Below are positions 20,149-62,786 of a stretch of 64,000 bases of DNA, piece after piece (position 1 is the first letter of the stretch; each line of letters opens with the position of its first letter). Origin of the DNA: an uncultured Bacillota bacterium (GTDB lineage: Bacteria > Bacillota_I > Bacilli_A > RFN20 > CAG-631); assembly GCA_902491575.1 (NCBI GenBank), contig CABUID010000004.1:2627-66626 (forward strand), written 5' to 3'. Both the position numbers and the translations under genes were made by a program. The notes under the pieces were generated by a model, which was not told the origin of the DNA, searched no databases, and saw only the letters and a program-made list of their open reading frames with translations.

Positions 20149-20478
20149 TTAAAATTTTCACAAAATACAATCTAAATATCGATATTTTATTTCATCTAAA
20201 GAATTATTTTGATTACTGTATTTAATTTATCAACTTTTGAAATAAATCCTTTAAAAACAATAGCCTTATCTGAAATAGTCAGTATAAAAATTTTAATCTC
20301 TTTCATATTATTCTATTTACTGAGTAGTATAATATAAAAAGAAAAAGTCGAAAGAAATAAAAGATGATTCAACTTTTACGATTTTTATACCACATTTTTA
20401 TTATATCATATTAGCCAAAAATATAAACACATGATTAAACTGTTATGTTCTTTCAAAAAATTCTTACATCATCTTTTT

Positions 20479-21624
20479 TCATAATTGCTTTTTTAATTCA
20501 ATAGAATATTTACAGGCAATGCTTAATATAATTATAACTAAAAATCCATTTATTGTAGATTCTGTTAAACCATTTATAAGAAGTATACACAACGCAATAA
20601 ATATAATCTTATGTCTATTGTCTTTAAAATCCAAATTTTTTATAGTTTTAAAAAATAAAATAGCAAAAAGCACTAAAGCGATAATTCCTCCTTCCATAAG
20701 AATTTCTAGAATGAAATTATGCGCTTCATAAATAGTTTGTTTTACTCCCCATGTATTAACATAAGATAACTCAACGCCTCGACCAGCACCAATAAACCAG
20801 TTATCCTTAATTAATTCTTCAGCAAGTTTCCAAATAGTTGTTCTTGAAGTTAATGTAGCATCTTTTCCTATAAAATTAGTAAATTTTTGCCAAAATTCTG
20901 TAAGCAAAAAAGAGTCCATAAATAAAAGAAATAAAGCATAAACTGTAAAAATAATTCCTAAATATAAACCTTTTTTAGGTTTAAACTTAATACTTAAAAG
21001 TAATAATAGTATTGTACATGAAGCAACAACTATTCCTGTTCCACTTGAGCCAATAAAAATAGTTAGTAAACTACTGATTACGACTATCACTGCAAATTTG
21101 CTTAATTTACCATATTTTTCAAATGAATTAATAATTACTAAAAATAAGCCTGGAATTAAAAATATACCTAACGCATTTTTTCCACCGATAAAATATTCAG
21201 TATTCACTGAATTTCTATTTATCAACATAACCAAAAAATTGATAACTAATGTGGCAATAATAATAATAAAAACCGCGCTTAACATGTCATCATAATAATC
21301 TGTTTGAAGCAAAGTAAATATTAAAACAGAAGCGACAATAACTGTAATAATACCAGGACTAATACCATTATTAAATATGCTACTAAAAAGAATTATAAAC
21401 TGGTATATGCCAAAAATTCCTATCGACCAATTTAATTTTATTTTCGTTGCTTTCATAATTAATAATATTAAAAGTATAGCTACCGATATGATTTGCCATG
21501 CCTGATAGATATTTGAACTTATTATATTTTTAATTCCTGAAAGACTTAAAAAAGGTATAATCAAAAAAATAAATAATAATATTATGAAATAATTACTTTT
21601 TCTTTTTACTTTTTCCATAATCAA
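20479..21624 (-). CDS. wzy: O-antigen ligase/Wzy-type polysaccharide polymerase.
   Basis: Polytopic membrane protein with a large periplasmic loop ('EAHNFILEILMEGG'), lying in the cps operon. Confidence 0.55.
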   Translation of the reverse strand: MIMEKVKRKSNYFIILLFIFLIIPFLSLSGIKNIISSNIYQAWQIISVAILLILLIMKATKIKLNWSIGIFGIYQFIILFSSIFNNGISPGIITVIVASVLIFTLLQTDYYDDMLSAVFIIIIATLVINFLVMLINRNSVNTEYFIGGKNALGIFLIPGLFLVIINSFEKYGKLSKFAVIVVISSLLTIFIGSSGTGIVVASCTILLLLLSIKFKPKKGLYLGIIFTVYALFLLFMDSFLLTEFWQKFTNFIGKDATLTSRTTIWKLAEELIKDNWFIGAGRGVELSYVNTWGVKQTIYEAHNFILEILMEGGIIALVLFAILFFKTIKNLDFKDNRHKIIFIALCILLINGLTESTINGFLVIIILSIACKYSIELKKQL

Positions 21625-22517
21625 TTACCTTTAGTCCTTTTTTTCAATTTTGTTTTCATAACTTGTCTTATTCTAAAATACCCTATCCCAAGGATAAAAT
21701 ATATTTGATTAATATTTAATAAACTAGCTGACTCCCTTATTTTTAACCCTTTGAGTTTTGAAACATAATAAAATTCACCACATTTGTTTAAGGAAGGAAA
21801 AAACGAGTGAGTTTCCAAAAATAATTTAGAACAATAAATAAATCCTAAAAAATTATTTGCATAAGTATTTTCATTAGTTTGTTTAGTTAATCCATCTTCT
21901 TTATATTCACATATATAAATTACTTCATTATACCATCTTATCTTAAGTCCATCTTTTGCAATACGATCCCAAACAGCAGATTCTCTTATAAAGTTTTCAT
22001 TTTCAAATTCAGGAAACGGATATTGTTTTAATACATCTGTTTTGTATATCTCTGCTTTATCCCCAAGTAAATTATATTTTTTCCTTTCCAAATTTGTGGC
22101 ATCAATGAAATATGATTGCGGTGAACCTCCAATTGTAGTATTCCCGTCAGCCTTTAACCCTGCAACTCCAGCAAATCCTTCCAATCCAGAAATATCTAAA
22201 ATCCATTCATGAACTTTTTCCACAGCATTTTCTGTAAGTTGATCGTCGCTATCAAGAATTAATAAATAATCATAATTTGCTAATGAGACAGCTCTATTTA
22301 CTGCGCGATGTTTTCCGCCATTTTTTTGTTTTTCATAAATAATAGAAAAATTATGTTCTTCTTTTAACCATTGTTTTACAATAGTTTCTGTTTCATCTGT
22401 CGACCCATCATCAATAATTATCCATTCAAAGTCTAGCAACGTCTGCTTTTTTAATGATTGATATGCTTTAGACAAAATATATGCCCTATTATATGTTGGC
22501 GTCACTATAGTAATCAT
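21621..22517 (-). CDS. Glycosyltransferase family 2.
   Basis: 'ITIVTPTYNRAYIL...IIDDGSTDETETIV...ILDSDDQL' shows DxD and GT-A signatures. Confidence 0.75.
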   Translation of the reverse strand: MITIVTPTYNRAYILSKAYQSLKKQTLLDFEWIIIDDGSTDETETIVKQWLKEEHNFSIIYEKQKNGGKHRAVNRAVSLANYDYLLILDSDDQLTENAVEKVHEWILDISGLEGFAGVAGLKADGNTTIGGSPQSYFIDATNLERKKYNLLGDKAEIYKTDVLKQYPFPEFENENFIRESAVWDRIAKDGLKIRWYNEVIYICEYKEDGLTKQTNENTYANNFLGFIYCSKLFLETHSFFPSLNKCGEFYYVSKLKGLKIRESASLLNINQIYFILGIGYFRIRQVMKTKLKKRTKGN

Positions 22518-22603
22518 ATCTTTTTACCTTACTTTCTATTTAAACCATAATAAATTTTTTTTGAACTGTTTATTACAAATATAGTTTGTTTTTTCTATGG
22601 TTT

Positions 22604-23401
22604 TCATATATTTATCCCCTTTGATTTTTTTAAATATTTCATTTTCCCTGCTTTCATTAACTTAATAGCTTTTATTGTCGATATATTTTCTTTATATAAA
22701 CTTCTTTTTCTTATTGCCCATTGACATATTAATAAAATAGTAAATGGTGTTTTCATTGCCGCAAATGATGCTCCCTTACCAATGAAATATTTTTCATTTC
22801 TCTTTGTAAACCAAGTTGAATCTCCTATATGCAAATCAGCAATTTCTTTTGGAATATAAAAAATTTTTAACTTTTTACGCAAGCATTGGAATAACAAAGC
22901 ATTTTCTTCTCCCATCATAAATTCTGTTCCTGCACCAATAACTTCATCAAATTGTATATTTTTTTCTACAAAACTAGTTCTTTTAAATGCAAGTTCTACC
23001 GATGCCATTTTCATTGAATTTAAATATTTTATTCTTTTTGCCTTTGTTGAATAATCTTTAAACTTTTTTTCTATTCCACATACTTGAAAACCTATAATAT
23101 CCACATTAAATTTTGAAAAAGCTGTTAAAACTATATTTACATAATTACTTCGATATTCCATATCATCATCCGCAAGCATACAAATATCTGCAGTAGCATT
23201 GCGAATTGCCATGTTTCTACTTTTACTTAATCCTCTTTCAGTTGTATCTATCCACAAAATAGTATGGTTATTATATTTAATTGATTCAATTTTTTCTTTA
23301 TTGCATTGATTGATTACTACCGCATCAGATGAGATTTTCATTTTTTTTAGCAGCGAATGATCTATTTGATTCATCGTTGAAATAAGAAGTTGTAAAGTCA
23401 T
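22604..23401 (-). CDS. GT-A fold glycosyltransferase-like protein.
   Basis: 'ICMLADDDMEY' is a DxD-like motif. The stop overlaps the upstream GT4 gene by 4 nt. Confidence 0.45.
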   Translation of the reverse strand: MTLQLLISTMNQIDHSLLKKMKISSDAVVINQCNKEKIESIKYNNHTILWIDTTERGLSKSRNMAIRNATADICMLADDDMEYRSNYVNIVLTAFSKFNVDIIGFQVCGIEKKFKDYSTKAKRIKYLNSMKMASVELAFKRTSFVEKNIQFDEVIGAGTEFMMGEENALLFQCLRKKLKIFYIPKEIADLHIGDSTWFTKRNEKYFIGKGASFAAMKTPFTILLICQWAIRKRSLYKENISTIKAIKLMKAGKMKYLKKSKGINI

Positions 23402-24600
23402 TGCACTTCACCTGCTATCATATTAATAATTTCTTGGTATGTTTTACTTCTGTCAAATCTTTCCTCTGCTAATCTTCGACTATTCATCCCCATTCGCTGA
23501 CGCGTTATCTCGTTTTCTATAAGAAAACGAATAGCTTTTGCCAATGATTGGACATCACCCGGGAAACACATCAAACCCGCATCATATTGTCTTAACAATT
23601 CTCCAAATTCTTGATTTTTTTGAACATTAATTATTGGAAGTGCTGCTGATACATAATCAGCATGTTTATTTATTATGCTCCCTGTTGCTTTGCCAACAAG
23701 GACATTAATTCCTATATCACATTTTACAAGGATCTTAATCATATTTTCATAAGTCAATCTACCAGTAAAGCGAACAGGGAGATGATTTTGCTTTGCATAA
23801 ATTTCAAATTTTTCTTTCATGGGACCATCTCCCATAATTAATAACTCTACTTTATCACAACCTTGTGTTATTAATAATTTCATTGCATCCATAACACCAC
23901 ATAAGTCATAGCTATGTCCAAGCATTCCTATATAGGCCATTGTAATAGGACGTAGTTTCCCTTTTAATGGTAACGCAGTTTTAGCTATTCTATCAAAATA
24001 ATTAATATCTGTACCAATAAATACGCTATGTCCCTTTATCATCTTAGAATTATTTTGTGTTGCTCTTTGAACATATGAATTTGAAACGGCAACTACCTCA
24101 CTTGCATTAAGATATGCAAAATCAATTTCTTTTTTCATTGGATACAATAATATTTTTGAAATAAAATTTGGCAAAAATATTTCAAATGCTTCTGGCCAAA
24201 GATCTAAAATATCAATTATTATACGAATATTGTTCTTTCTTGCAAACTTAACAACTTTTTTTGCCAAAAATGTAGGTGGGACAAATAGATAAATTACATC
24301 TGGCTTTGTTTGCTTTTTAAGATATTTAATGACATTTTTAGCAAAATGGCGATGAGCAAACAAACGCGAAAGTGAAATATTTTTTCTATAGGTTCCTTCC
24401 TCAAGCAAGGTCGCTTTGTAAGAAATATCCCTTAATACTTCAATTTCACTTCTTTGTTTTTTCGCGGTATGATAAAATTTTGAAGTAATCACTTCCACAG
24501 ATATTCCTTTTTTAACCGCAAGCGTTGCTATTGTATGATAACGACTACTTGTTTTTTCAACTGGAAAATGCCAATAATTAGATATAATAATTGCTTTCAA
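23398..24600 (-). CDS. Glycosyltransferase family 4 (GT-B fold).
   Basis: 'ISLSRLFAHRHF...' N-terminal domain plus C-terminal 'GDGPMKEKF...' GT1-type domain; 400 aa. Confidence 0.7.
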   Translation of the reverse strand: MKAIIISNYWHFPVEKTSSRYHTIATLAVKKGISVEVITSKFYHTAKKQRSEIEVLRDISYKATLLEEGTYRKNISLSRLFAHRHFAKNVIKYLKKQTKPDVIYLFVPPTFLAKKVVKFARKNNIRIIIDILDLWPEAFEIFLPNFISKILLYPMKKEIDFAYLNASEVVAVSNSYVQRATQNNSKMIKGHSVFIGTDINYFDRIAKTALPLKGKLRPITMAYIGMLGHSYDLCGVMDAMKLLITQGCDKVELLIMGDGPMKEKFEIYAKQNHLPVRFTGRLTYENMIKILVKCDIGINVLVGKATGSIINKHADYVSAALPIINVQKNQEFGELLRQYDAGLMCFPGDVQSLAKAIRFLIENEITRQRMGMNSRRLAEERFDRSKTYQEIINMIAGEVQ

Positions 24601-24604
24601 AATA

Positions 24605-25609
24605 TCACACTCCTAACAAATATTTTAATGGTTTCTTAATTTTCTTAAAAGGCAAAGCTCTTAAGACAATTAAAATAATAACTGGAATTAAATAACCCAA
24701 TATACTCATTGCAATTGCAGTAATTGCTACACTTAAATTCAAAAGTTGATAGAATAAAATGCGAACTAAAATCATTATAGGCCAATGCATAATATATATG
24801 CCAAATGAGAATGATGCAAGTTTTTCAAAAAATGGTGACAAAGATTCAATGGATGTAGAAATAGAAAGAAATGTCATTAAAATAAAAATACAAGGAATGA
24901 AATGTAATGGTTTTGTTTGCTCATACCAAATTAATGAAATAATAGAAAAAAGAATTGCACCACATATAAATCCTAATCGAAATCTTTTCATCACTATAAT
25001 AAATTTGTCACTTCTCATTTGCCCCAATAAACAACCAATAACGAAGAAAAGTAAATCCTTGTGCAAATCACTTAAAGCTAAAAACTCAGTATTTATAGGC
25101 AATATATAAAGGAAAATACAAAATACTATTGCAATTGTTGAAATCCACACTTTTTTTGTTTCAAATAGTTTTTGGAATAAAGGAGTAGCCAAATAAACTA
25201 TAAACAATGCTACCAAAAACCATGTATGTCCCCAAACGTTTTGGCGTGGAAAAACAAAAGCTTTTAATATATCTAATACATTGAATGACACTTTATCTGA
25301 AAGATAATCTTGAAATAAAAATTTAGGTACCCAAAAAATTATGTTCCAAATAAAATAAGGAAGTAATAGACGTTTTGACTTATTAAAAATAAATTTAATA
25401 TATGATTTTTCTCCTTGATATCCTTTAAATGATAATAAATACCCACTAATCAAAAAGAATAAAGGCATATGAAAAATATAAATCCACTCTTTTGAAAAGA
25501 TATACCAAGCACCTGTTGATTGAAGGCCATTTAATGAATGTCCTAACACAACAAAAATGGGACCTATAATTTGTAATAGACTTATATATGTAATTCTTTT
25601 ATTCTCCAT
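24605..25609 (-). CDS. Acyltransferase family 3 (membrane O-acyltransferase).
   Basis: 'ISLLQIIGPIFVVLGHS' N-terminal motif; ten predicted TM helices. Confidence 0.6.
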   Translation of the reverse strand: MENKRITYISLLQIIGPIFVVLGHSLNGLQSTGAWYIFSKEWIYIFHMPLFFLISGYLLSFKGYQGEKSYIKFIFNKSKRLLLPYFIWNIIFWVPKFLFQDYLSDKVSFNVLDILKAFVFPRQNVWGHTWFLVALFIVYLATPLFQKLFETKKVWISTIAIVFCIFLYILPINTEFLALSDLHKDLLFFVIGCLLGQMRSDKFIIVMKRFRLGFICGAILFSIISLIWYEQTKPLHFIPCIFILMTFLSISTSIESLSPFFEKLASFSFGIYIMHWPIMILVRILFYQLLNLSVAITAIAMSILGYLIPVIILIVLRALPFKKIKKPLKYLLGV

Positions 25610-26636
25610 ATTCTATCAAAGCCTTCCTTATGTTATTTTTTTCAAATAAAATAGTCAATTCATTAATTGTTTCACATGTTAATTCTACACTTTTTCCATT
25701 GCACATTTCACTTTTTTTGTTTCCTATTTCTCCAGGATAAAACACTTTCCCAGAAGCATGTACCTCATCTATATATTCATCCATTTGTTTATAAAATGAA
25801 TCTCCTAAAATTATCGACGGATTAATAGCTATAAAGGACTGTCCAACATTCATACATTTATTGTCATCTGAATAAAATCTATTTATATGATTCAAATAAC
25901 CTGCACCTGACAAAACTCCAGAAAGAATATCTATTGCCATAGCGATGGCATATCCTTTATGTTCAGCCATAGGCAAAATCATACCTTTAATTGCTTTTTC
26001 TGGGTCTGTTGTAGGATGTCCGTTTTCATCAACAGCCCACCCAATTGGTATTTTACCACCTTGTTTACGAATTTCATTTATTTTAGATTTGGCTACAATA
26101 CTCGTTGCCATGTCAATTAATATAGGGCTGTTCTTATCAGCAGGAATACCAATAGCAAAGGGGTTTGTTCCTAAAATTTTTATATTACCTCCCCAAGCAG
26201 GCATTGCTGAAGGGCTATTAGATAAGCATATTCCTATCATTTTTTGTGTTGTGGCCTTTTTAACATATCTAAAAGCTGCTCCAAATGTATTTGCATTACG
26301 GCAAAACACTGTATAAATGCCTGTTTGAAGAGCTTTTTCTAACGCAATTTCCATACATCTATCTGCAGAAACTACTCCTATTTGATTATTTGCATCTAAA
26401 ATTGTAAAAGATGGAGTCTGTCTTAAAATTATACTCTCCTCAGTCAAATTAAAGCCTTTATTTTGAATTTTTTTTATATACACAGGAAAAATAGATACGC
26501 CATGTGTGTGTACACCTCGCATATCTGCTTCAAGCATAGAATCAACTAAAGTTTCAGCTTGTTTTTCACTAACTTTATTTTTTTTTAATATTTCAATTAA
26601 AGCACTCTTTAATTCAATGATGGAATATCTTTTCAT
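25599..26636 (-). CDS. Ldh_2 family (malate/L-sulfolactate dehydrogenase-type) NAD(P)H-dependent 2-oxoacid oxidoreductase.
   Basis: 'MRGVHTHGV', 'LGTNPFAIGIP' and 'HKGYAIAMAIDILSGVLSG' are typical of PF02615. SD 'GAGGAAAA' precedes the ATG. Confidence 0.7.
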   Translation of the reverse strand: MKRYSIIELKSALIEILKKNKVSEKQAETLVDSMLEADMRGVHTHGVSIFPVYIKKIQNKGFNLTEESIILRQTPSFTILDANNQIGVVSADRCMEIALEKALQTGIYTVFCRNANTFGAAFRYVKKATTQKMIGICLSNSPSAMPAWGGNIKILGTNPFAIGIPADKNSPILIDMATSIVAKSKINEIRKQGGKIPIGWAVDENGHPTTDPEKAIKGMILPMAEHKGYAIAMAIDILSGVLSGAGYLNHINRFYSDDNKCMNVGQSFIAINPSIILGDSFYKQMDEYIDEVHASGKVFYPGEIGNKKSEMCNGKSVELTCETINELTILFEKNNIRKALIEYGE

Positions 26637-26642
26637 TTTTCC

Positions 26643-27335
26643 TCATTTCTCGATGTTATCCTTTGAATTTGTTTCGGATTCATCGTCTATATTTTCTGTT
26701 ATTACTGTAGTTTTAGAATTTGATTTTTTTTCTATAGTAATATTTTTATTTTCATTATCTGCATTCGAAAGTACTTTCCAAATTGTAATGAAAAAAATAC
26801 GTAAATCTAAAAGAAATGAAACATGTTCAGCGTAATAAACTCCCATATTAATACGATCAACCCACATAACATCTTTTCTGCCATGTATTTGTGCCCATCC
26901 TGTAACACCAGGGCGTACTTCAAACATTTTACGCTGCTCATCGTCATAGTCCTCAAACGGCCAGGGATGATAAGTAAGAGGTGGTCGAAATCCTATCAAG
27001 GACATATCTCCTTTTATGATATTTATTAATTGTGGTAGTTCATCAATACTTGTAGCTCTTATTACACGTCCAACTTTAGTGACTCTTGGATCACCTTTAA
27101 ACGAATATTGACCAGAGCCCTTATTTTCAGCATCTACACACATTGAACGAAATTTATAAATTGTAAATGGTTTCCCATGCCTTCCTAATCGTGTTTGTTT
27201 AAAAATTACTGGACCAGGTGTTTCTAGTTTTATAGCAATTGCAACAATCAAAAAAACAGGTGAAAGTAATATCAAAACTAAAAAGGAAAAAAATAAATCA
27301 AATAAGCGTTTTAAAAAATTTTTATATATTCTCAT
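26643..27335 (-). CDS. Undecaprenyl-phosphate sugar phosphotransferase (small PglC/WbaP-C-type priming transferase).
   Basis: 'LKRLFDLFFSFLVLILLSPVFLIVAIAIKLETPGPVIFKQTRLGRHGKPFTIYKFRSM...DELPQL'. 'AAAGGAG' lies upstream of the ATG at 27335; the track's TTG start falls inside the SD. Confidence 0.8.
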   Translation of the reverse strand: MRIYKNFLKRLFDLFFSFLVLILLSPVFLIVAIAIKLETPGPVIFKQTRLGRHGKPFTIYKFRSMCVDAENKGSGQYSFKGDPRVTKVGRVIRATSIDELPQLINIIKGDMSLIGFRPPLTYHPWPFEDYDDEQRKMFEVRPGVTGWAQIHGRKDVMWVDRINMGVYYAEHVSFLLDLRIFFITIWKVLSNADNENKNITIEKKSNSKTTVITENIDDESETNSKDNIEK

Positions 27336-28161
27336 TTTTATTTTTACTCCTTTTGACAATCTCTTCTACACATTTTTGAATATATTTAATATTATTCAAA
27401 AATGACTGAGTTTCATTTAAATCTATTTTTGTTTCAAATTCTCTTAATTTTTTTAAATTTTCCGAAAACGATTTTTCTAATTTCGAAATCTCAGAAAACT
27501 CTTCTATATTGCAAAAACTTCTCGACAAAATCGCTCTTGTAGACCCAAGTCTATAATGTTCCATAATAATACTTTCTGCAGGAAGTAATCCCTCACCAAT
27601 ACATGCGATTCCCCCAAAGCCATAAGGTATACCAGCTTTTTTAAATTTTTTACAAAGTGTTTCTACCAAACCATTTGCTAATAGTTCAAACATAAACGTG
27701 AGTCCATAACTAAGATGCAAATCATTCAAACCAATATGAATTTCATCGAAACCACCCATTTCAAGAACTTCATCAATACATTCTACTGCTTCTTTCGTTT
27801 CTAGCAAAAGAATTGTTTTAGTTCTATTTTTAACAAATTTGAGAAATTCTTTAACTTCTTTAGGCGTTTTCCACATTGGTAACATGATTAAATCTGCACC
27901 AGCAATTATTACCTGATTAATTTCTTTTTCAGAAGTTTCATTTAAAGGATTAATCCGTACAAGCATTTCTGAAGTTTCTAACAAATTAGATATAATTCTA
28001 ATATCCTGAATACAATGATGCGATTTCACTGTATTTATATTATGTTGCCGTTCTTCTTTACCAAGGACTTCGAGATCAACCCAAATTCTTTCAACACCAT
28101 TTTTTTCAGCAATCTTAGCAATTGCTGGATTGTTTGTTATATACATTAAAGTCAATGGCAT
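27322..28161 (-). CDS. HpcH/HpaI aldolase / citrate-lyase beta-like family protein (class II pyruvate aldolase fold).
   Basis: 'ITNNPAIAKIAEKNGVERIWVDLE', 'VRINPLN', 'AGADLIMLPM', 'LLLETKEAVECIDEVL...DEIHIGLNDL' match PF03328. The start is assigned to M22, which has an AGGA SD. It overlaps the PGT start by 14 nt. Confidence 0.55.
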   Translation of the reverse strand: MPLTLMYITNNPAIAKIAEKNGVERIWVDLEVLGKEERQHNINTVKSHHCIQDIRIISNLLETSEMLVRINPLNETSEKEINQVIIAGADLIMLPMWKTPKEVKEFLKFVKNRTKTILLLETKEAVECIDEVLEMGGFDEIHIGLNDLHLSYGLTFMFELLANGLVETLCKKFKKAGIPYGFGGIACIGEGLLPAESIIMEHYRLGSTRAILSRSFCNIEEFSEISKLEKSFSENLKKLREFETKIDLNETQSFLNNIKYIQKCVEEIVKRSKNKNENI

Positions 28162-28519
28162 CGTATCACGTCCTATCTTCAAAATAATGTGTGTTATATT
28201 CAAAAGTAAAATTTTACTAAACATTTTTCAAAATATACTGAAAAAAGTTATCTTGACAAATATTTTTCTTCCTATATTCTTTCTGCTTGTATGACTTACC
28301 TATTATACTAATAGGTATATTTAGACTTTAATAGTATGGCATATTTATTGGAATAATTCAATTACAATTAAATATAAGTTTGTATTTATCGTAATTATAA
28401 GAAAAAATCGATTTCAATGCAACCTACAAATGTAATTTAATTATGTAGATAATAGAAATGTATAAATCTTATTTCATCTATTACAATTATTTCACTTTAT
28501 GGAAAATATAAGTATCATT

Positions 28520-30460
28520 TTATGCTACAGGAATTTTTTCTTTTTTTGTTTGGTTAGACTTTTTATCAATAATTTGACGATTAAATTCTATATAATCTGT
28601 ATAACTCGTTACGACTTCTTTTAAGCAATTTTTAATTGCCTCATTATCTGTCATGGTGAAAACTTTACTAATAAACTTCATTTTCTCTTCCATAGGTAAA
28701 ATTGTTGTTTTTTCTTCGACAAAAATCTTTTCATTCGTTGTTTTCGTATTTTTTGTTACATCAAGAAGTAATTCTTCATATAATTTTTCCCCAGGTCTTA
28801 ATCCAATAAACACTATATCAATATCTTTATATGGAATAAGTCCACACTGCTTAATTACATTTTCTGCAAGTGTGACAATTTTAACAGGTTTCCCCATATC
28901 TAAAATAAAGATTTCTCCTCCAGTGGCAAAAGCTCCAGATTGTAAAATTAAACTCACAGCTTCAGAAACAGTCATAAAATATCGAATAATATCTGGATGC
29001 GTAATTGTAACAGGGCCCCCTTCTTCTATCTGTTTTTTAAATAAAGGAATCACCGAACCATTTGATCCTAATACATTACCAAACCGAACGGCAGAATAAG
29101 AAGTCGTTTCACTTTTTTCGTCCCAATAACGGATTACCATTTCTGCAAAAGATTTTGTTGCTCCCATTGTATTCGTTGGTCTAACTGCCTTATCAGAAGA
29201 TACTAAAACCATTTTCTCTACATGATATTTATCAGACATTTTCGCTACATTATAAGTTCCTAAACAATTTGTACGAATCGCTTCAACTGGTGAATCTTCC
29301 ATTAAAGGAACGTGTTTATATGCTGCAGCATGAAAAACTATATCTGGACGATATTTATTAAAAATTTCATCCAATCTAAATTCATTATAAGTTGATCCAA
29401 TTAAGGTAATTATCTCGATATCTTTACCGTCATGTTTTAATTTTCTAATTAATTCTTGTTGGATATCATATACTGCGTTTTCATATATATCAAACAATAT
29501 TAATTTCTTAACATTAAAATAATAACATTGTCTTGCTAATTCTGATCCAATCGTTCCACCTCCACCTGTAATCAATACAGTTTTATGGTTCAACCAATTT
29601 TGAATTTGCATAGTATCAAATGTTATTTGTTCTCGACCCAATAGTTCAGCTAAAGAAACATCTTTAATAAGCATTTTTTTCGTAGGATCTATCATTTCAC
29701 TTAATAATGGAAGTCGACGAATTTTAACATTTTCATTAGCAAGAAAAGCAATAATTTCATTAAGTTGTTTTTTATCCAATTTTGAAATTGCTATAATTAC
29801 TTCTTTTATTCCATACTTTTCAATAATTTGATGAGCATTATTTAATGGACCCACAACTGGTTTCCCTAAATATTTTTTACCAACTTTAGATAAATCATTA
29901 TCACCAAAACAGACTATTTTATTATTAAAAGCTGAATTGTTATGCATTTCATCATAAGCTATTTTACCAGCCACACCAGCACCAATTATCATTGTAGAAA
30001 CAGCATTTTTATTAGACGTAGTATAGAATTTAATAGTTCTTTGAACACATCTACTTCCAATCATTAAAATCGCTTCAAATGTTGAAATAAATGCAAACAT
30101 TAAAATAGAAAGTCTAGGAATAGAAGGAAGAATTTTATTCATTATAGCAGCGACAACATTTACAAATAAAATCAAAATACAAAATCGGATGGCGTCTCCT
30201 AAACCAAAATTATCTGTAATTATTCGATAACCTCCAAAAAAATAAAATACAAAAACATGAAATAAAGCCACACCACAAATAAATAATAAAGAAGGCAATT
30301 CTATATTTTTATATTGTATTAAATATCCTAAAATATAAGTAATCATAACAATTGCTATGTCTACAAAAATAAAAAGCAACATTTTTAATGTTCTAAAACT
30401 CATATATACCTTTTTATTTTTCATTTCCGTCATAAAATCAGTACCTTTCATTTTTTGCAT
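28520..30460 (-). CDS. capD: Membrane-anchored UDP-N-acetylglucosamine 4,6-dehydratase (CapD/PglF/EpsC family).
   Basis: Four N-terminal TM helices followed by two Rossmann motifs ('IGAGVAGK', 'VLITGGGGTIGSELARQ'). Length 646 aa. Confidence 0.85.
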   Translation of the reverse strand: MQKMKGTDFMTEMKNKKVYMSFRTLKMLLFIFVDIAIVMITYILGYLIQYKNIELPSLLFICGVALFHVFVFYFFGGYRIITDNFGLGDAIRFCILILFVNVVAAIMNKILPSIPRLSILMFAFISTFEAILMIGSRCVQRTIKFYTTSNKNAVSTMIIGAGVAGKIAYDEMHNNSAFNNKIVCFGDNDLSKVGKKYLGKPVVGPLNNAHQIIEKYGIKEVIIAISKLDKKQLNEIIAFLANENVKIRRLPLLSEMIDPTKKMLIKDVSLAELLGREQITFDTMQIQNWLNHKTVLITGGGGTIGSELARQCYYFNVKKLILFDIYENAVYDIQQELIRKLKHDGKDIEIITLIGSTYNEFRLDEIFNKYRPDIVFHAAAYKHVPLMEDSPVEAIRTNCLGTYNVAKMSDKYHVEKMVLVSSDKAVRPTNTMGATKSFAEMVIRYWDEKSETTSYSAVRFGNVLGSNGSVIPLFKKQIEEGGPVTITHPDIIRYFMTVSEAVSLILQSGAFATGGEIFILDMGKPVKIVTLAENVIKQCGLIPYKDIDIVFIGLRPGEKLYEELLLDVTKNTKTTNEKIFVEEKTTILPMEEKMKFISKVFTMTDNEAIKNCLKEVVTSYTDYIEFNRQIIDKKSNQTKKEKIPVA

Positions 30461-30617
30461 AACACTATTAATAAGTTAATAAATATTATTAACTTTTATT
30501 AATCATATCATAGAATCGTGTTAGATACAATTTAAATAATTTGGAAAACTACGTAATCCGAATATTTATAATCACTTTTATGAATGAAAGCGTTAACAAA
30601 AAAACTTAGACCATTGT

Positions 30618-31295
30618 CTAAGTCTTTTCATTAAGAAAATTAAATTCAAAAAGTTGATTATTCTTACACTTTTCCTTAGCCAGTAATAAATTTGAAGGAC
30701 GAAATGAATGAACATCGGAGGCAACAATATCGACTAAATTATTTTTAAGTAACTTTTGAACTAATTTATACTCTCTTTTATTCGTTAATTTCAAAATTGA
30801 ATTTGCATTAATTTGGATAAATGCACCTTCTTTTCTTAATTGAATAATTTTTTCAATGGTCATCCATTCATATCTTTCAACATGTGCGATAATCACTTTA
30901 TAATGAAAACATGTAAAATTATAAATTAATTCCAGTAAATCTTCTGGTTCATAAACGAAGGAAAATTCAAGTAAAATATATTGACTTTGATTCATTGTTA
31001 AAAGCTTATTTTGATTTAACATCTCAATGATATTTTCATGTCGAGAATAATAAATTTCTTGACCAAGTAACAAATGAATCTTTAAATTTTGCTTTTTCAC
31101 TTCTTCTAAAAGTACTTCAAAGTAATGTTTTATTTCTTCTACACTTTTTTCATATTTTGAATAGATATGATGTGGAGTACAAACAATTGTATCCACTCCC
31201 ATAGAAATTTCGTTTTTTATCATCTCAATAGAGTCTTTTAATGAAGTACTGCCATCATCTACAAATGGAATAATATGTGTGTGAATATCAATCAT
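30618..31295 (-). CDS. cpsB: Tyrosine-protein phosphatase CpsB/CapC (PHP family).
   Basis: 'MIDIHTHIIPFVDDG' start and 'HVERY' motifs. Confidence 0.85.
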   Translation of the reverse strand: MIDIHTHIIPFVDDGSTSLKDSIEMIKNEISMGVDTIVCTPHHIYSKYEKSVEEIKHYFEVLLEEVKKQNLKIHLLLGQEIYYSRHENIIEMLNQNKLLTMNQSQYILLEFSFVYEPEDLLELIYNFTCFHYKVIIAHVERYEWMTIEKIIQLRKEGAFIQINANSILKLTNKREYKLVQKLLKNNLVDIVASDVHSFRPSNLLLAKEKCKNNQLFEFNFLNEKT

Positions 31296-31304
31296 ACTTT
31301 TTTA

Positions 31305-32033
31305 TTATTCATTACTTTCTGAATAATCTTGGTAATAATAATGATATCGACTATTCCCATACCCACTTTTATCTTTTCTTGAAATTCCTGTAACAATGCT
31401 ACCTAAAAGATTCACGTTATTATTTTTTAATAGTTTTATGGCTTCTTTAGCAGCTGTTTTTTCTGTTAATTTTTGTGAAACAACAAATAAACATCCATCC
31501 GTATATTTTGATATTACGACAGCATCGGATACAGCTAATATTGGTGGGCAATCTACAAGAATAACATCATACATCTCACGTAATTGGTTCATTACCTTTT
31601 CTAGTTCTTTAGAGCCTAATAAAGCCGTTGGATAAGGTGTCTTTGTTCCACGATTAATTAAATCAAAAGGTAATTTATCCGAATGTTTAATAGCATCATT
31701 TATCGTAATATTTCCTGTTAAAACATCTGTAATTCCTTTTTCATTTGGAAGATAAAATGCACGATGAAGTTTTGGTCTTCTAAAATCTAAATCTAAAACA
31801 ATGACTTTCTTTTTGCTCTCTGCATAGGTTGCAGCTAAATTTAACACTGTTGTGGTCTTTCCTTCACCTTGCAAAGAGGAACAAACTTGAATCACTTGAA
31901 TTTTTTTATCTACTTCAGAATACTCAAGTCCAACTTTCACTCTTCGATAAGCTTCCGCTAAAATCGATAAAGGCTCTTCTAATGTTACAATATGTGTATA
32001 CGTTTCTGTCATCTCTATTTTGTTCTTTTTCAT
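31305..32033 (-). CDS. cpsD: Tyrosine-protein kinase CpsD/CapB (BY-kinase cytoplasmic domain).
   Basis: Walker A 'GEGKTTTVLNLA', Walker A' 'VLDLDFRRP', Walker B 'VILVDCPP', and a C-terminal Tyr cluster 'YGNSRYHYYYQDY'. Confidence 0.85.
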   Translation of the reverse strand: MKKNKIEMTETYTHIVTLEEPLSILAEAYRRVKVGLEYSEVDKKIQVIQVCSSLQGEGKTTTVLNLAATYAESKKKVIVLDLDFRRPKLHRAFYLPNEKGITDVLTGNITINDAIKHSDKLPFDLINRGTKTPYPTALLGSKELEKVMNQLREMYDVILVDCPPILAVSDAVVISKYTDGCLFVVSQKLTEKTAAKEAIKLLKNNNVNLLGSIVTGISRKDKSGYGNSRYHYYYQDYSESNE

Positions 32034-32049
32034 TCTTTTATCCTCCTCT

Positions 32050-32811
32050 TTAATTTGTTTTATCGGAAATATATTCTGGAATTCCAGATAAAACAGGAAG
32101 ACCTAATACTTTTTCAACTTCTTCAGAATTTTTAAATTTATTATCTGTTAGTTCACGAATTAAAACATATAGTAAAGAAAGCACAATTCCTACAGCAAAA
32201 AAGATAACTACATATTTTCTGGTATAACTAACTTGAGTAATGGTATTTTCGCTTGCATTATTTAAAATTACAATATTTTCATATAAAAATTTATTGACAG
32301 GTTTATTATTTACATCTACTTCATTTGCTTTTTCAATGACGGTTTCCATCAAAGTATTTAATATAACAATCGCTTTATCAGGATTATTAGCTGTATAAGT
32401 CAAATCCAAAATTAAAGAAGAACCCGATATTTGTGCATTAAAACTTCTTTTTAAGGTATTAATGGTCAATTCAGGATAGTCTTGTTTTAGTTTATCTACT
32501 GTAGCACCTAAAACACTATCTTGTGATAAATAAACAACATAAGTATTAATTAAGTATTGTGATAATTGATAATTTTGATAATCGGATAAACTTGATCCAT
32601 TTGAATTACCATCTACAGACACCATCATCGATGAATTTGCATTATATTGTGGATGTTTTGCTTGTTTAAATTTTGCAAAGCCAAAACCAATTACTGTAAA
32701 AACAATAATCGTAATGCATATCACGATAAGATGTTTACGAACGATATGTAATAAATCTTGAAAAGATAGTCCTTCTTTTTCTTCAACTATTTTTTCTGCT
32801 TCATTTTCCAT
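32050..32811 (-). CDS. cpsC: Capsular polysaccharide chain-length determinant / BY-kinase transmembrane activator (CpsC/CapA, Wzz-like).
   Basis: Two TM helices flank a periplasmic domain. It lies immediately upstream of the kinase. Confidence 0.75.
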   Translation of the reverse strand: MENEAEKIVEEKEGLSFQDLLHIVRKHLIVICITIIVFTVIGFGFAKFKQAKHPQYNANSSMMVSVDGNSNGSSLSDYQNYQLSQYLINTYVVYLSQDSVLGATVDKLKQDYPELTINTLKRSFNAQISGSSLILDLTYTANNPDKAIVILNTLMETVIEKANEVDVNNKPVNKFLYENIVILNNASENTITQVSYTRKYVVIFFAVGIVLSLLYVLIRELTDNKFKNSEEVEKVLGLPVLSGIPEYISDKTN

Positions 32812-39567: not shown

Positions 39568-40395
39568 CTATATTTCGATTATCATTCCATCATAAGTCAC
39601 TTCTACATGATGTTTTAAAGCATTTTCTCTCATCTTTTCATAACCTGCTTGTCCATTGTGAGAGAAATGATTTGCCATGATTTTTGTATGTTGATCAATC
39701 AATTTCATTTCTTTCAATCTCTCGATTACTTCTAAAAAACAATCAAAAGATAAATGATGATCCTTCCAATTTGTAAGTAAACCTGCTGTACAATCTAAGG
39801 AAATTAAATCAAAATGAATATATAACTTCTCTAAAAATTTCCAGACTTCTTCTGAATAATAGCCTGTATCATGTGCATACAAAATCGTTTTGTCATTTTG
39901 TCGAATAATATAATTTAAAGGTCCAGCATTTTTATCATGATTTGCTTTCAAAGGAATAATGGTATAATCCTTGATTTGAAAAGATTCAAATGGCTGAACG
40001 AAACGTGCTTGCACATATTGTTCCATATTTTCACTTTTTATAACTCGCAACGCTTCTTGATAAACAGAGTCTGCACCATAAACAAATAATGGCTCTTCTT
40101 CTACTTTTGAAGCATATCCTTTTCTTCTAAAACATAATTCATTACTATAAAAGTGATCCGAATGATTATGTGTGATTAAAACATGATGAATTCGGTCTAA
40201 TGGGACTTGATAAGTAAGCATATGATAATAAGTGTCTGGTCCAAAATCTAAAAGTAAATCATCATTAATCAATGTCTGACAACGGCTTCTAATAAAACGT
40301 CCTCTTTTTTCATTGGCTTCTTTACAAACATCACATTGACAATATAATGCTGGAATTCCTTCTGCAGCGGCTGTTCCTAAAAATTGTATTTTCAT
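39568..40395 (-). CDS. MBL-fold metallo-hydrolase, PhnP-like (with Cys-rich zinc ribbon).
   Basis: 'MKIQFLGTAAAEGIP', 'CQCDVC' and 'HVLITHNHSDH' (HxHxDH). Confidence 0.65.
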   Translation of the reverse strand: MKIQFLGTAAAEGIPALYCQCDVCKEANEKRGRFIRSRCQTLINDDLLLDFGPDTYYHMLTYQVPLDRIHHVLITHNHSDHFYSNELCFRRKGYASKVEEEPLFVYGADSVYQEALRVIKSENMEQYVQARFVQPFESFQIKDYTIIPLKANHDKNAGPLNYIIRQNDKTILYAHDTGYYSEEVWKFLEKLYIHFDLISLDCTAGLLTNWKDHHLSFDCFLEVIERLKEMKLIDQHTKIMANHFSHNGQAGYEKMRENALKHHVEVTYDGMIIEI

Positions 40396-41953: not shown

Positions 41954-42634
41954 TTAAGCAAATTTTTTTAATAAAATCCAAATTACAATTAAAATAATTA
42001 ATAAAACAATTCCAATTAAAGCCATAATGAGAGATGTTTTTTTATTCGTTCCACCACTCTTTTCAATTAAATGAATGGCTCTTAATGCTGTAATAATTGG
42101 TTTATAAAGCAATAATACCAAAGCTACATTCACACCTATCTTTACTAAATTAAAAATGATAATATAAACTAAATAGTTTTGAATTAATACATCTCTTGGA
42201 ACATCCATATATAAAGGCGTAATAATGATATTCCATAATGTCATGACAATAATTGCAGATATAAACCCTGTAAGTAAAGCAATTAATGCACCTGAGAAAC
42301 TTTTTTTCGTTTTGTAAATCAATGTTGCAGGAATTACAAAAGCGCACGTAGAAATAATGTTCATAATTAATCCATAAAAGCCAGTGCTACTGATGGTAAT
42401 CATTTCAATGAAGGATACGACAACAGAAATAATCAATGCTGCAATAGGTCCTAAAATAAAACCACCAATACAAATAATAATATCCTTTGGATCATAAGTT
42501 AAAAAGGATACGCTTGGCACTATCGTTAAATGCAAAAAGTGCGCAACCATAGCTACTACATAGGCGATTGCTGCAAACATGGCAATCATCGACATTTTTT
42601 TTACTAATAAATTTTTTTTCATGTTTTTCTCCAA
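41954..42634 (-). CDS. ribU: ECF transporter S component, putative riboflavin transporter (assigned via the upstream FMN riboswitch).
   Basis: Six-TM small membrane protein, preceded on the same strand by an FMN riboswitch. Confidence 0.65.
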   Translation of the reverse strand: MEKNMKKNLLVKKMSMIAMFAAIAYVVAMVAHFLHLTIVPSVSFLTYDPKDIIICIGGFILGPIAALIISVVVSFIEMITISSTGFYGLIMNIISTCAFVIPATLIYKTKKSFSGALIALLTGFISAIIVMTLWNIIITPLYMDVPRDVLIQNYLVYIIIFNLVKIGVNVALVLLLYKPIITALRAIHLIEKSGGTNKKTSLIMALIGIVLLIILIVIWILLKKFA

Positions 42635-42640: not shown

Positions 42641-42795
42641 GTACCCGCGGGCTCCAAGGGTACTTTAAAATTAAAAATTTTTGCTTCTTTCATCCAGACT
42701 TTACTGTCGGCACTAGAATTTCACTAGTTCATGCTAAATAGCTCGTGGGCTTTACCACCGGTTCGGAATTACACCTGACCCTGAAGACATTATTA
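42641..42795 (-). promoter_or_regulatory. FMN riboswitch (RFN element) with intrinsic terminator expression platform.
   Basis: Minus-strand RNA 'CUUCAGGGUCAGGUGUAAUUCCGAACCGGUGGUAAAGCCCACGAGC...GUGCCGACAGUAAAGUCUGGAUGAAAGAAG' matches the conserved RFN core. 'GUACCCuuggagcccgcGGGUAC' plus U8 lies immediately before the ribU SD. Confidence 0.8.
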
Positions 42796-52635: not shown

Positions 52636-53394
52636 ATGCGATATTATTTTTTAGCGAGTGGTTCTGGTGGCAATTGTACGGTTTTAGTAAATGATGAAAA
52701 CGAAATTCTTCTTATCGATTGTGGCATTCCTGTAATGGATATAAAAAGAAGAATGAAACAAATTAATTTAGATTTTGAAAATGTAAAAAAAGTTATAATT
52801 ACTCACATGCATGTAGACCACGTAAAATCTTTAAAAGCCTTTGATCCTCAAAATGTTTACTTAAATGCTTTAACTAATATGAATGAATATAATCTTTTTG
52901 ATTATTATCAAACCTTAAATATTTTAGGTTTCAAGATTTATACCTTACCTGTTTCTCATGATTCACCTGGAACAACTGGATTTTTAATTGAATATAAAAA
53001 TGAAAAAATGGCTTATATTACCGACACAGGCTATGTCCACGAAAATATTCAGCGAATCATCAATAATTGCGATATCTATTGTATGGAAAGTAATCATGAC
53101 CCACGTTTGTTGATGCTGACCAAAAGACCTATGTTTTTAAAACAACGAATTTTATCCGCTATTGGGCATTTATCGAACCAAGATTGTGCTTATGTTTTAG
53201 GAAATATAATTGGACCAAAAACGAAAGAAATTGCTTTTTTACATCGTTCTAAAGAAGCAAATACCGAAGAAATACTTATGGAAACATTCTTATCAACAAT
53301 GAAAAAAATGAATGTCAATATTGAACAAATTTCTTTATGTATTGCACGCCAAAATGAACCCGTATCCTTTGAACAATTAACCATTAATAGATAA
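52636..53394 (+). CDS. MBL-fold metallo-hydrolase.
   Basis: 'HMHVDH' (HxHxDH), 'ITDTG' and 'ESNHD'. Confidence 0.6.
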   Translation: MRYYFLASGSGGNCTVLVNDENEILLIDCGIPVMDIKRRMKQINLDFENVKKVIITHMHVDHVKSLKAFDPQNVYLNALTNMNEYNLFDYYQTLNILGFKIYTLPVSHDSPGTTGFLIEYKNEKMAYITDTGYVHENIQRIINNCDIYCMESNHDPRLLMLTKRPMFLKQRILSAIGHLSNQDCAYVLGNIIGPKTKEIAFLHRSKEANTEEILMETFLSTMKKMNVNIEQISLCIARQNEPVSFEQLTINR

Positions 53395-60392: not shown

Positions 60393-61346
60393 ATGATAAG
60401 ATTATTAATTAGTGAACCATCTCTTTTATTAAAAGCAAAAATCAATGAATACACTTATGCTATTTTAGAATCTAAAAACGATTTTAATTATTGTACTTTT
60501 GATTTTGAAGAAACACCATTAGATGAAATTATAGATACTTTACAATCTCCTGCTTTTGGATCGGATAAAAAAATGGTTATTTGCAAAAATCCCTATTTTA
60601 TTAAAGATGAAAAATTAAAATTACCTTTTACAAACGACTTAAAAAAATTAGAAGATTATATTGCCAATCCAAACCCAGACAGTGAATGGATTATCATTTG
60701 CCCGAAAAAATATTATATAGCCAAAAATAAACTCATCAATAAAATAGCTAAAAATGGTAAAGTTGAAAATTTATTACTTGAGAATGAAAATGAATATTAT
60801 GATTATGGAAAACATTTAATTGAAAGTGCAAATATTAAAATTGAAGAAAAAGCAATGAATATTTTATTTGAACGTTGCATAAACGATATTTGTAAACTAG
60901 AAAGAGAAATTGCTAAGTTAGCACTTTATAATCAACCAATTGATGTTAACTTAATTCAAAAATTTGTTTCCAAACCATTGGAAGATGATGTGTTTGAATT
61001 ATCCAATGCTCTTTTATCGAAAAATCATAAAAAAATAATGCAAGTGTATAATGATTTAAAATTATTAAAAATAGAACCTGTATATTTAATTTCTTTATTA
61101 GCCAACCAATTTCGTTTAATGCTTCAAGTATCTATTTTACGAAAACAAAACGATAAAGAAGAAAATATCGCTGAAATTTTAAATGTTCATCCTTATCGTA
61201 TAAAATTGGCTATAAAAAACACTCAAAATTATTCATTACAAGATTTAAAAAATAGCTTAATTGAATTATCTGATCTCGATAGTAAAATTAAGACAGGCGA
61301 ATTGGACCGTTATGTAGATTTCGAACTTTTTTTAGCAACGAAATAA
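60393..61346 (+). CDS. holA: DNA polymerase III subunit delta.
   Basis: Position after comEC as in Bacillus; 317 aa; 'PVYLISLLANQFR' delta C-terminal helical region. Confidence 0.65.
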   Translation: MIRLLISEPSLLLKAKINEYTYAILESKNDFNYCTFDFEETPLDEIIDTLQSPAFGSDKKMVICKNPYFIKDEKLKLPFTNDLKKLEDYIANPNPDSEWIIICPKKYYIAKNKLINKIAKNGKVENLLLENENEYYDYGKHLIESANIKIEEKAMNILFERCINDICKLEREIAKLALYNQPIDVNLIQKFVSKPLEDDVFELSNALLSKNHKKIMQVYNDLKLLKIEPVYLISLLANQFRLMLQVSILRKQNDKEENIAEILNVHPYRIKLAIKNTQNYSLQDLKNSLIELSDLDSKIKTGELDRYVDFELFLATK

Positions 61347-61449
61347 TGATTTATAACATTTTTTTGATCTTTTTAAAAGAATGTCAAAAGAATGTTTTTT
61401 TTCCACAAAAAATATAGTATAATAGATTTAGATATTGCGGAGGCACTTT

Positions 61450-62220
61450 ATGAAAATAGTCATTTATGTAGGAAAATTTGAAAAAGAATTTTCAAATTAT
61501 TCATTCGAAAAACCAAAATCTTTATTAGAAATTGGTGATATGCCTATCTTATGGCATATTATGAAATACTATGCATCATTTGGGTTTAATGATTTTGTTT
61601 TGGCATGCAGTTATAAACCTTATTATATCAAAGAATTTTTTGCAAATTATGCTTTACATCATAATGATGTCACTATCGATTTAAAAAACAAAACAATTAA
61701 ACCATTATTAAATGAAGAGGAAGATTGGAAAATAACAATCATCGATGTAGGTAAAAATACAAATACTGGTGGAGCTATTAAAAAACTACACCCTGTTATT
61801 GGTGATGAAATGTTTATGTTTACTTATGGTGATGGTCTTTCAAATATCGATTTAAATTTATTATTATCTCATCATATTCGCCATAAAAAAATGATTACAA
61901 TAAGTTCTATTTCTGCTAGTCAAAAGTTCGGTATTATTGACTTTAACGATAATGGTTCTGTTATCGGCTTTAGAGAAAAAGATAGTTTAGATTCTACTGT
62001 CAATGGTGGATATATGGTTTGTAATCCTGAAGTATTTGATTTAATTGACGATAGCGCAAATACTATTTTTGAAAGAGAACCTATGATTACCGCAGTAGCC
62101 TATCACCAAGTTACTGCTTACCGACACCATGGATTTTGGCGTAGTGTAGATACTTTTAATGATCTTGATGAATTAAATGAAATGTGGATTAATGGAAATG
62201 CTCCTTGGAAAAATTGGTAA
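61450..62220 (+). CDS. Glucose-1-phosphate cytidylyltransferase (RfbF/DdhA) homologue with a degenerate N-terminal nucleotide-binding loop.
   Basis: Strong similarity across the body ('KPILWHIMK' -> 'MPILWHIMK', 'IKEFFANYALH', 'FTYGDG', 'INGGYMVCNP', 'GFWRSVDT', 'APWKNW'). The signature 'LAGGLGTRL' is replaced by 'YVGKFEKEF'. Confidence 0.7.
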   Translation: MKIVIYVGKFEKEFSNYSFEKPKSLLEIGDMPILWHIMKYYASFGFNDFVLACSYKPYYIKEFFANYALHHNDVTIDLKNKTIKPLLNEEEDWKITIIDVGKNTNTGGAIKKLHPVIGDEMFMFTYGDGLSNIDLNLLLSHHIRHKKMITISSISASQKFGIIDFNDNGSVIGFREKDSLDSTVNGGYMVCNPEVFDLIDDSANTIFEREPMITAVAYHQVTAYRHHGFWRSVDTFNDLDELNEMWINGNAPWKNW

Positions 62221-62288: not shown

Positions 62289-62786
62289 ATGTTTAAAGTA
62301 AACGATAATGTAATACATAAAAGCGCAGGTGCTTGCATCGTAGAAGATATCGTTACACGTGATTTTGGCACGGGTGATAAAACATATTATTATCTTAAAC
62401 CTAAATATCCAAATGCTGTTAATAAAACTTTAGAAATTTATTTGCCTTTAGATAAGGAAAATGATTTTATTCGTAAACCTTTATCCAAGAAAGATGTTTT
62501 ATCTCTTATACAATCCATTCCATCTATGGAAAAAATATGGTTTAATGATGCTAAAACACGTAAATTAAAATTTGAAGAAATTTATCACGATGGAAATATC
62601 AAGGGATTATGTCAATTGGTTAAGCTTTTATATGTTGAGTCAGACTTTTTTTCAAAACCAATGAGCCTTACCGATAAAGGATTTTTAACAAAAATCCGCA
62701 ATAATATTTTTGATGAATTTGCTGTAGCTTTAGAAATATTGCCACAGGAAGTTGAACAATATGTCAAAAAATACCTAGTAGATTAA
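62289..62786 (+). CDS. CarD/CdnL/TRCF-domain family protein (RNAP-interacting).
   Basis: N-terminal 'MFKVNDNVIHKSAGACIVEDIV' resembles the CarD_CdnL Tudor-like domain. Confidence 0.55.
   Translation: MFKVNDNVIHKSAGACIVEDIVTRDFGTGDKTYYYLKPKYPNAVNKTLEIYLPLDKENDFIRKPLSKKDVLSLIQSIPSMEKIWFNDAKTRKLKFEEIYHDGNIKGLCQLVKLLYVESDFFSKPMSLTDKGFLTKIRNNIFDEFAVALEILPQEVEQYVKKYLVD

Follow-up and report, generated by a model that had tools for sequence, protein, structure and literature searches.

An RfbF-like protein with a replaced nucleotide loop, kept under selection and probably inactive or repurposed, in a small clade of uncultured bacteria

Introduction

The superfamily of sugar-1-phosphate nucleotidyltransferases, to which the glucose-1-phosphate cytidylyltransferase RfbF (DdhA; PDB 1TZF and 1WVC) belongs, also includes paralogues that are kept with little or no activity. 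In GalF, the paralogue that derives from GalU, the Thr-Arg of the G-x-G-T-R motif is substituted by Met-His and the natural activity is about 1/20,000 of that of GalU, that is, down by about four orders of magnitude; when the same change was made in GalU the Vmax decreased by three orders of magnitude, and mutation of the equivalent Arg in GlmU had a 6000-fold cost (PMC4643126). GlgD of the Firmicutes, found in low-GC Gram-positives, is without activity and modulates GlgC (PMC9093745), and the large subunit of plant AGPase is another inactive paralogue kept as a modulator (PMC4643126). In eukaryotes, the non-catalytic GMPPA binds GDP-mannose and exerts allosteric feedback control on GMPPB (PMC11228364). 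In this work we analyze an RfbF-like gene carried by a stretch of DNA of 64,000 nucleotides from an uncultured Bacillota bacterium (assembly GCA_902491575.1, contig CABUID010000004.1, positions 2,627 to 66,626 of the forward strand), hereafter called the window.

The part of these enzymes that is relevant for the comparison has been described in HddC, where the canonical motif for nucleotide binding is GXGXR. Just ahead of this motif, Ala8-Gly9-Gly10 contact the ribose O2' through their backbone amides in an induced fit, Ser55 moving together with the residues of the nucleotide loop (PMC6981941).

Results

The protein encoded in the window is homologous to RfbF from end to end, and this is beyond doubt. 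It matches the Pfam domain NTP_transferase, and HMMER aligned it with Salmonella RfbF (PDB 1tzf/1wvc), with an E value of 9.7e-65 for 1tzf across residues 2-256. The profile TIGR02623, an NCBIfam equivalog for glucose-1-phosphate cytidylyltransferase (RfbF) with a curated whole-protein cutoff of 300.25 bits, was covered at 255/255 positions (E 7e-80), but the score of 268.1 bits falls short of that cutoff; five other members of the clade described below gave 224-268 bits, versus 392-428 bits for five canonical proteins. The AlphaFold2 model, built from a 55-sequence alignment, reached a mean predicted local distance difference test (pLDDT) of 86.7 and a predicted template modelling score of 0.85, and its top matches in the PDB were 1tzf and 1wvc (template modelling scores 0.78-0.81, E 1e-29 to 9e-32), so the predicted model has the fold of RfbF. 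The GMPPA/GMPPB structures 7d72 and 7d74, with ~18-19% identity, were also among the fold matches.

The most evident difference with RfbF is located in the nucleotide loop. HMMER pairs the 1tzf loop KAVILAGGLGTRLSEETIVKPK (also given as LAGGLGTRLSEET) with KIVIYVGKFEKEFSNYSFEKPK (YVGKFEKEFSNYS) of the window protein, where Gly10 is kept and Gly11, Gly13, Thr14 and Arg15 are replaced; in the AlphaFold2 model the pLDDT is ~61 at residues 11-20. The first-pass annotation, made from the window sequence, had considered this loop destroyed with its glycines and arginine lost, which is correct for the four replaced positions but not for Gly10. To place these changes in the context of the family, the window protein and 13 clade relatives were aligned with 1TZF and 209 canonical RfbF-like sequences carrying G-G-x-G-x-R (n = 210 with 1TZF), and a position was taken as conserved when one residue was present in at least 85% of the canonical set. 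In agreement with the earlier statement that almost all the conserved blocks of RfbF are present, 46 of the 62 conserved positions keep their residue in 85% or more of the clade. At 12 positions the clade has a different majority residue, and in the remaining 4 the canonical residue is still the clade majority, below the 85% threshold. The changed positions include five that are 100% invariant in the canonical set (G11, G13, R15, G56 and R111), and T102, conserved at 99%.

None of the 14 clade members presents the G-G-x-G-x-R signature. Instead, the loop consensus G-[KR]-[FY]-[ED]-[RK]-[QE]-F, plus T-G-G-A, is common to all of them, and the window protein lacks the Arg111 of RfbF. Koropatkin et al. 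(2005) reportedly mutated this arginine along with other residues of the active site. Codon 54, where Gly56 is lost, corresponds by residue alignment (query 3-61 versus 6jq8 residues 4-62) to Ser55 of HddC, in the nucleotide pocket. Since the changed 100%-invariant positions are all located in or near the nucleotide site, the losses, as read from the alignment, selectively affect the nucleotide half of the active site and extend beyond the loop. The alignment to RfbF, which the first-pass annotation had proposed as a check, thus confirmed the altered loop and added the losses of Arg111, Gly56 and Thr102. The earlier claim that no alternative frame rescues the motif, and hence that this is no simple frameshift, was also borne out: no other frame of 61300-61620 restores G-G-x-G-T-R-L, and the six frames of the whole 64-kb window contain zero matches to G-x-G-[TS]-R-[LMFI].

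Two unrelated RfbF-like representatives, P0189 and P0239, are also without the arginine of G-x-G-x-R (AGGLPSTLIEEDEK and GGEGIHLPG, respectively), and therefore the degeneration of the loop happened more than once in the RfbF family.

The rest of the active site presents another picture. The window protein keeps Lys25, Asp131 (in Y-G-D-G), Asp236, Glu178-Lys179 and Asn188; within the clade, Lys25, Asp131 and Asn188 are found in 14/14 members, and Asp236 and Glu178/Lys179 in 12/14. In this enzyme family Asp131 and Asp236 are the metal-binding residues, and Glu178-Lys179 and Asn188 those that contact the sugar phosphate. The two exceptions are the most divergent members, P0013 (E178D, K179N, D236Y) and P0014 (K179R, D236H), both with intact open reading frames (ORFs), and these extra losses fit what would be expected if selection is not for catalysis. 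In addition, 22 residues are fixed specifically in the clade, with clusters at 154-178 (the sugar-binding subdomain, with an invariant F-N-D-N-G-S-V) and at 215-222. Positions F165, N166, D167, N168, G169, S170, V171, G173 and F174 are clade-invariant, and several of these residues are rare in canonical RfbF. This pattern would point to a new ligand or to a surface newly under constraint.

Regarding the distribution of the protein, a search of 5.8 billion proteins returned 16 clusters (90% identity level) at 59-100% identity, with ~87 member sequences. Fourteen of these clusters are full-length and two are fragments, and the next matches are canonical enzymes at ~50% identity. The altered loop and Ala111 are common to the 14 full-length clusters, whose identity is 59-86%. 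When a profile of the clade was run with HMMER against 1.84 billion representatives at 50% identity, one full-length sequence (502 bits) and one fragment (376 bits) were obtained, the next match having 277 bits; the clade is a single isolated 50%-identity cluster. It forms a long branch, with 45% identity to the canonical sequences versus an average of 67% among the latter. A scan of one genome per species (185,579 species) gave one clade member, 72% identical, on a 1.5-kb contig of a metagenome-assembled genome (MAG) labelled Erysipelotrichaceae bacterium, and among the matches listed from a scan of JGI metagenomes there were canonical relatives only, at no more than 47-48% identity. In NCBI a member of the same cluster as this MAG protein, MCI5746183.1, is named 'glucose-1-phosphate cytidylyltransferase', and this public annotation is probably wrong for the clade. 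One of the clade fragments, P0015 (362 aa, on a 1154-bp JGI contig), leaves the family after about residue 240 and continues in an unrelated tail of 140 residues, probably the product of a frameshift or of an assembly chimera.

The altered protein is not a peculiarity of one assembly. The identical protein was called on 14 metagenome contigs from several independent assemblies; the six of them that were listed represent six different samples and, at the DNA level, differ from the window at no site or at one synonymous site. Pairwise Nei-Gojobori ratios of nonsynonymous to synonymous substitutions (dN/dS) among five clade members were 0.18-0.35, with dS of about 1. Between the same genomes, the amino-acid identity of the RfbF-like protein (69, 68 and 71%) is comparable to that of its essential neighbor HolA (69, 67 and 74%), and the protein is better conserved than ComEC, ComEA and the GDSL lipoprotein encoded nearby. 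The GC content of the gene is 28.8%, versus 27.7% for the window.

In the window the gene order is comEA - comEC - holA - RfbF-like gene - carD-like - GDSL lipoprotein (coordinates in Table 1). CarD/CdnL proteins are factors of the RNA-polymerase-binding type. The order holA - RfbF-like - carD-like is also present in P0003, P0004, P0009 and P0012 (five lineages with that of the window, 68-73% identity), and it is broken in P0014, the member with 59% identity, whose gene is flanked by an asparaginase-like gene, as identified by reading the sequence, and by a solute-binding protein. Since cotJB and cotJC-type genes adjoin this region, the host would seem to be a low-GC spore-former.

The first-pass annotation had called the gene an orphan, without partners of a CDP-sugar pathway nearby. 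Indeed, tblastn with an RfbG from a canonical locus as query found no CDP-glucose 4,6-dehydratase (RfbG) in the window, in the 10 kb further downstream or in the clade loci L001-L011, and the Pfam annotation of the neighborhood contains none. Neither a canonical sugar-1-phosphate nucleotidyltransferase motif in the 64-kb window nor a catalytic paralogue that could act as partner, in the window or in the 10 kb further downstream, was found. It should be noted, however, that a strong match to RfbG within ~6 kb is present in only 28 of 79 canonical loci, about 11 more having a weaker dehydratase-like gene (7 directly adjacent), and that about half of the canonical loci (L012-L090), mostly of Cytophagales/Cyclobacteriaceae and Nitrospirota MAGs, have no dehydratase within that distance. 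The 'orphan' label is therefore only weakly diagnostic. From these same loci it follows that many 'RfbF' genes may feed other, uncharacterized pathways.

A Wzy-type locus for capsule or exopolysaccharide is also present in the window (17579-32811, minus strand), with genes for Wzz, a CpsD-like kinase, CpsB, a Polysacc_synt_2 dehydratase, a Bac_transf initiating transferase, several glycosyltransferases, Wzy and an Acyl_transf_3 protein. Two unusual components are an HpcH/HpaI-type aldolase (27322-28224) and a dehydrogenase of the Ldh_2 family (25599-26636), and a 503-aa protein without Pfam match (18634-20148) may be the flippase. This locus was considered as a source of pathway partners and discarded: it shows no link with the RfbF-like gene, from which it is separated by 29 kb, it lies on the other strand, and it is without a nucleotidyltransferase, a CDP-glucose dehydratase or CDP-pathway genes.

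As for the limits of the gene, the ORF 61435..62220 (+) that had been reported in the first-pass annotation exists in the window, but its TTG at 61435 is a start in the mechanical sense only. A GGAGG is located six bases upstream of the ATG at 61450 and all the homologues begin with MK[IVT]V there; because of this, the ATG is the likely translation start and the TTG is almost certainly unused. A scan for promoters and terminators gave 23 promoter-like sites versus 21.5 expected and no terminators, and was uninformative in DNA of 28% GC.

Table 1. Position in the window of the RfbF-like gene, of its altered codons and of the adjacent genes. Residue numbers of RfbF are those of 1TZF; fractions and counts refer to the canonical set and to the clade.
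Feature	Coordinates	Strand	Description	Basis
RfbF-like coding sequence	61450..62220	+	256 aa plus stop	ORF listing and sequence
Ribosome-binding site GGAGG	61439..61443	+	6 nt upstream of ATG 61450	Read from sequence
Loop, codons 8-14	61471..61491	+	G-K-F-E-K-E-F in place of G-G-x-G-T-R-L (1TZF residues 10-16)	HMMER alignment
Codon 54	61609..61611	+	Ser for Gly56; G 1.00 in canonical, S/N/C/V in clade	
Codon 100	61747..61749	+	Val for Thr102 (V-D-T-G block); T 0.99 in canonical, V in 12 and A in 2 of clade	
Codon 109	61774..61776	+	Ala for Arg111 (T-G-G-R to T-G-G-A); R 1.00 in canonical, A in 14/14 of clade	
Subdomain of the sugar-phosphate motif, codons 155-178	61912..61983	+	S-A-S-Q-K-F-G-I-I-D-F-N-D-N-G-S-V-I-G-F-R-E-K-D; E176/K177 = E178/K179, kept	
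holA (DNA polymerase III delta)	60393..61346	+	Upstream neighbor	Pfam
CarD/CdnL-like protein	62289..62786	+	Downstream neighbor	Pfam PF02559

Other elements were identified during the annotation of the window and of related loci. An FMN riboswitch (RF00050, 99 bits) at 42678-42792 (minus strand) is located upstream of the S component of an energy-coupling factor (ECF) transporter (41954-42634, minus strand), and a second ECF S component, of riboflavin type, is found at 15300-16052 (minus strand). Two chromosomal genes of metallo-beta-lactamase fold, at 39568-40395 (minus strand) and 52636-53394 (plus strand), match PF23023, the Pfam family named for the phage anti-Pycsar nuclease Apyc1. An uncharacterized nucleotidyltransferase of the NTP_transf_5 family (13616-14833) and a Fic-domain protein (2501-3547) are encoded on the plus strand. 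Finally, very large ORFs without Pfam match (1734 aa, more than 1088 aa and 1547 aa) follow the conserved block immediately downstream, in the organism of the window (locus L001, 14728-19932 and 20065-20771, minus strand) and in a relative (locus L008, 3620-8263, plus strand).

Discussion

The comparison with the systems already described allows a first evaluation of this protein. With RfbF/DdhA it shares the length, the predicted fold and the metal and sugar-phosphate residues; the identity is ~39% when aligned structurally with the Salmonella enzyme, and 45-51% with respect to the nearest canonical sequences. It differs from that enzyme in the replaced loop, Arg111, Gly56 and Thr102, in the score below the cutoff, in the long branch, and in that the gene is not beside a CDP-glucose 4,6-dehydratase. 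Like GalF, it is a bacterial paralogue with the Thr-Arg of G-x-G-T-R substituted whose gene has been kept (PMC4643126). However, GalF keeps the glycines and has two loop residues changed, whereas here four of the six defining positions plus Arg111 are changed; GalF is encoded in or next to polysaccharide clusters, and the window gene between holA and the carD-like gene. The subfamily of origin is also different, RfbF in one case and GalU in the other. The resemblance to GlgD and to the large subunit of plant AGPase would lie in the persistence of an inactive member of the superfamily, but those proteins are encoded beside a catalytic partner and assemble with it, and carry a C-terminal left-handed beta-helix, while no partner was found here and the window protein is without such a domain. 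GMPPA is likewise an inactive member of the fold, although it is eukaryotic and much more distant, with an extra C-terminal domain and a known partner. The window protein differs from all four by its RfbF origin, its lost glycines and the lack of an identified catalytic partner, and our literature searches gave no description of such an RfbF derivative.

Taking these observations together, and with moderate confidence, we interpret the protein as a derivative of RfbF that is selectively maintained and probably inactive or repurposed, in analogy with GalF, GlgD and GMPPA. As in other non-catalytic paralogues, catalytic signature residues are substituted in an otherwise intact fold, and the altered state is shared by the 14 clusters and kept by purifying selection. 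In the mechanism that we propose, the protein is a lineage-specific derivative that keeps the fold of RfbF plus the residues that bind Mg2+ and sugar phosphate, and in which the nucleotide half of the active site has been rebuilt through the loop, Arg111Ala, Gly56 and Thr102. Canonical CTP binding and catalysis would be lost or lower by orders of magnitude, CDP-glucose would no longer be made at a useful rate, and binding of a hexose-phosphate or an NDP-sugar may persist in the half of the site that is kept. The protein could then work as a sensor, or as a regulatory or scaffolding subunit, non-catalytic or with vestigial activity only. It would presumably be expressed from the housekeeping neighborhood holA - RfbF-like - carD-like, and purifying selection keeps it in this small clade of uncultured bacteria. 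The evolutionary route would be that of GalF, GlgD, the plant AGPase large subunit and GMPPA. The sequence evidence favors the loss of canonical activity, which we infer together with the persistence of sugar-phosphate binding and a regulatory role. The alternative put forward in the first-pass annotation, either a pseudo-enzyme or regulatory paralogue or else an atypical nucleotidyltransferase, is thus supported in its general terms, the trivial explanations being excluded.

Several points weigh against this interpretation. The known inactive paralogues act together with a catalytic partner (GlgD, GMPPA and the AGPase large subunit; the same has been proposed for GalF), but no partner was found in the 64-kb window. 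GalF itself keeps measurable activity. In the loop, a Lys or Arg occupies the position of Gly11 in 14/14 clade members and that of Thr14 in 13/14, and these residues, together with Lys25 and both aspartates (12/14), would be compatible with a reshaped phosphate site that still works. The 22 clade-specific residues, part of them in the sugar-binding subdomain, would fit a new ligand or a new substrate equally well. Lastly, the conserved position between holA and the carD-like gene looks like inherited gene order and is a weak clue to function, because only close relatives share it and P0014 does not.

Some of these points lead to the alternative that best survives, which we hold to be possible but unlikely: that the protein is an active nucleotidyltransferase with a non-canonical phosphate loop, in which the Lys/Arg at loop positions 9 and 12 replace Arg15 and Arg111, and whose substrate may differ. 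The conservation of basic residues in the new loop, the retained Lys25, Asp131, Asp236 and Glu178/Lys179, and the strong selection on the gene are all in its favor, and the residues fixed in the sugar-binding subdomain might reflect a changed specificity. Furthermore, UDP-glucose pyrophosphorylase of eukaryotes is functional although it has no such Arg (PMC4643126). On the other hand, two glycines that are 100% invariant have given way to charged residues, and the equivalent stretch of HddC binds the nucleotide (PMC6981941). The change of Arg to Lys, though conservative, accompanies inactivity in the large subunit of potato AGPase (PMC4643126). The most divergent members are also difficult to reconcile with catalysis, since P0013 and P0014 have no equivalent of Asp236 and P0013 is in addition without Glu178/Lys179, and downstream pathway genes are absent from the vicinity, as the search of the window showed.

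A less probable possibility, which is a particular case of the inactive derivative that we favor, is that the protein is the non-catalytic subunit of a hetero-oligomer whose catalytic nucleotidyltransferase is encoded elsewhere in the genome, and whose activity or specificity it would tune. RfbF is said to be a hexamer with the active sites at the subunit interfaces, according to the paper on 1TZF. The precedents of GlgD with GlgC (PMC9093745) and of GMPPA with GMPPB (PMC11228364) support such an arrangement, as does the presence of GMPPA/GMPPB structures among the fold matches. Nevertheless, a canonical partner and the G-x-G-T-R motif are absent in 64 kb in any frame, and, unlike glgD and galF, which adjoin or neighbor functionally related genes, the window gene does not.

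More doubtful still is the idea that these proteins form an undescribed family derived from RfbF that has abandoned nucleotidyl transfer, and are stand-alone sensors of hexose-phosphates or nucleotide sugars, without a catalytic paralogue as partner, which would inform a housekeeping process of these Erysipelotrichaceae-type bacteria about their carbohydrate status; in that case the position between holA and the CarD/CdnL gene would be functional and not a matter of inherited gene order.

As a last alternative, an artefact or a dying gene might have been suspected from a unique-looking N-terminal loop in a single window, and it can be considered refuted in all its forms: a sequencing or assembly error (named in the first-pass annotation as what could overturn its claim) by the identical protein on 14 contigs and the same loop in 14 clusters down to 59% identity, a frameshift or a wrong start by the lack of any frame that restores the motif, and a recent, decaying pseudogene by the intact ORFs, the dN/dS of 0.18-0.35, a divergence equal to that of holA and a GC content close to that of the window.

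Conclusions

As far as our literature searches show, this would be the first case of 'enzyme inactivation' derived from RfbF, preceded by those of the GalU, GlgC and GMPP branches, and it is more radical than the earlier ones, since the whole glycine loop has been replaced and not one or two residues. The clade is small and restricted to uncultured organisms, and its wider impact would be modest unless it turns out to have a new function. Should the protein be inactive, the synthesis of CDP-glucose is wrongly predicted in metabolic reconstructions of these gut-type bacteria. The clade also offers a natural test of what the nucleotidyltransferase scaffold is able to do without its nucleotide loop.

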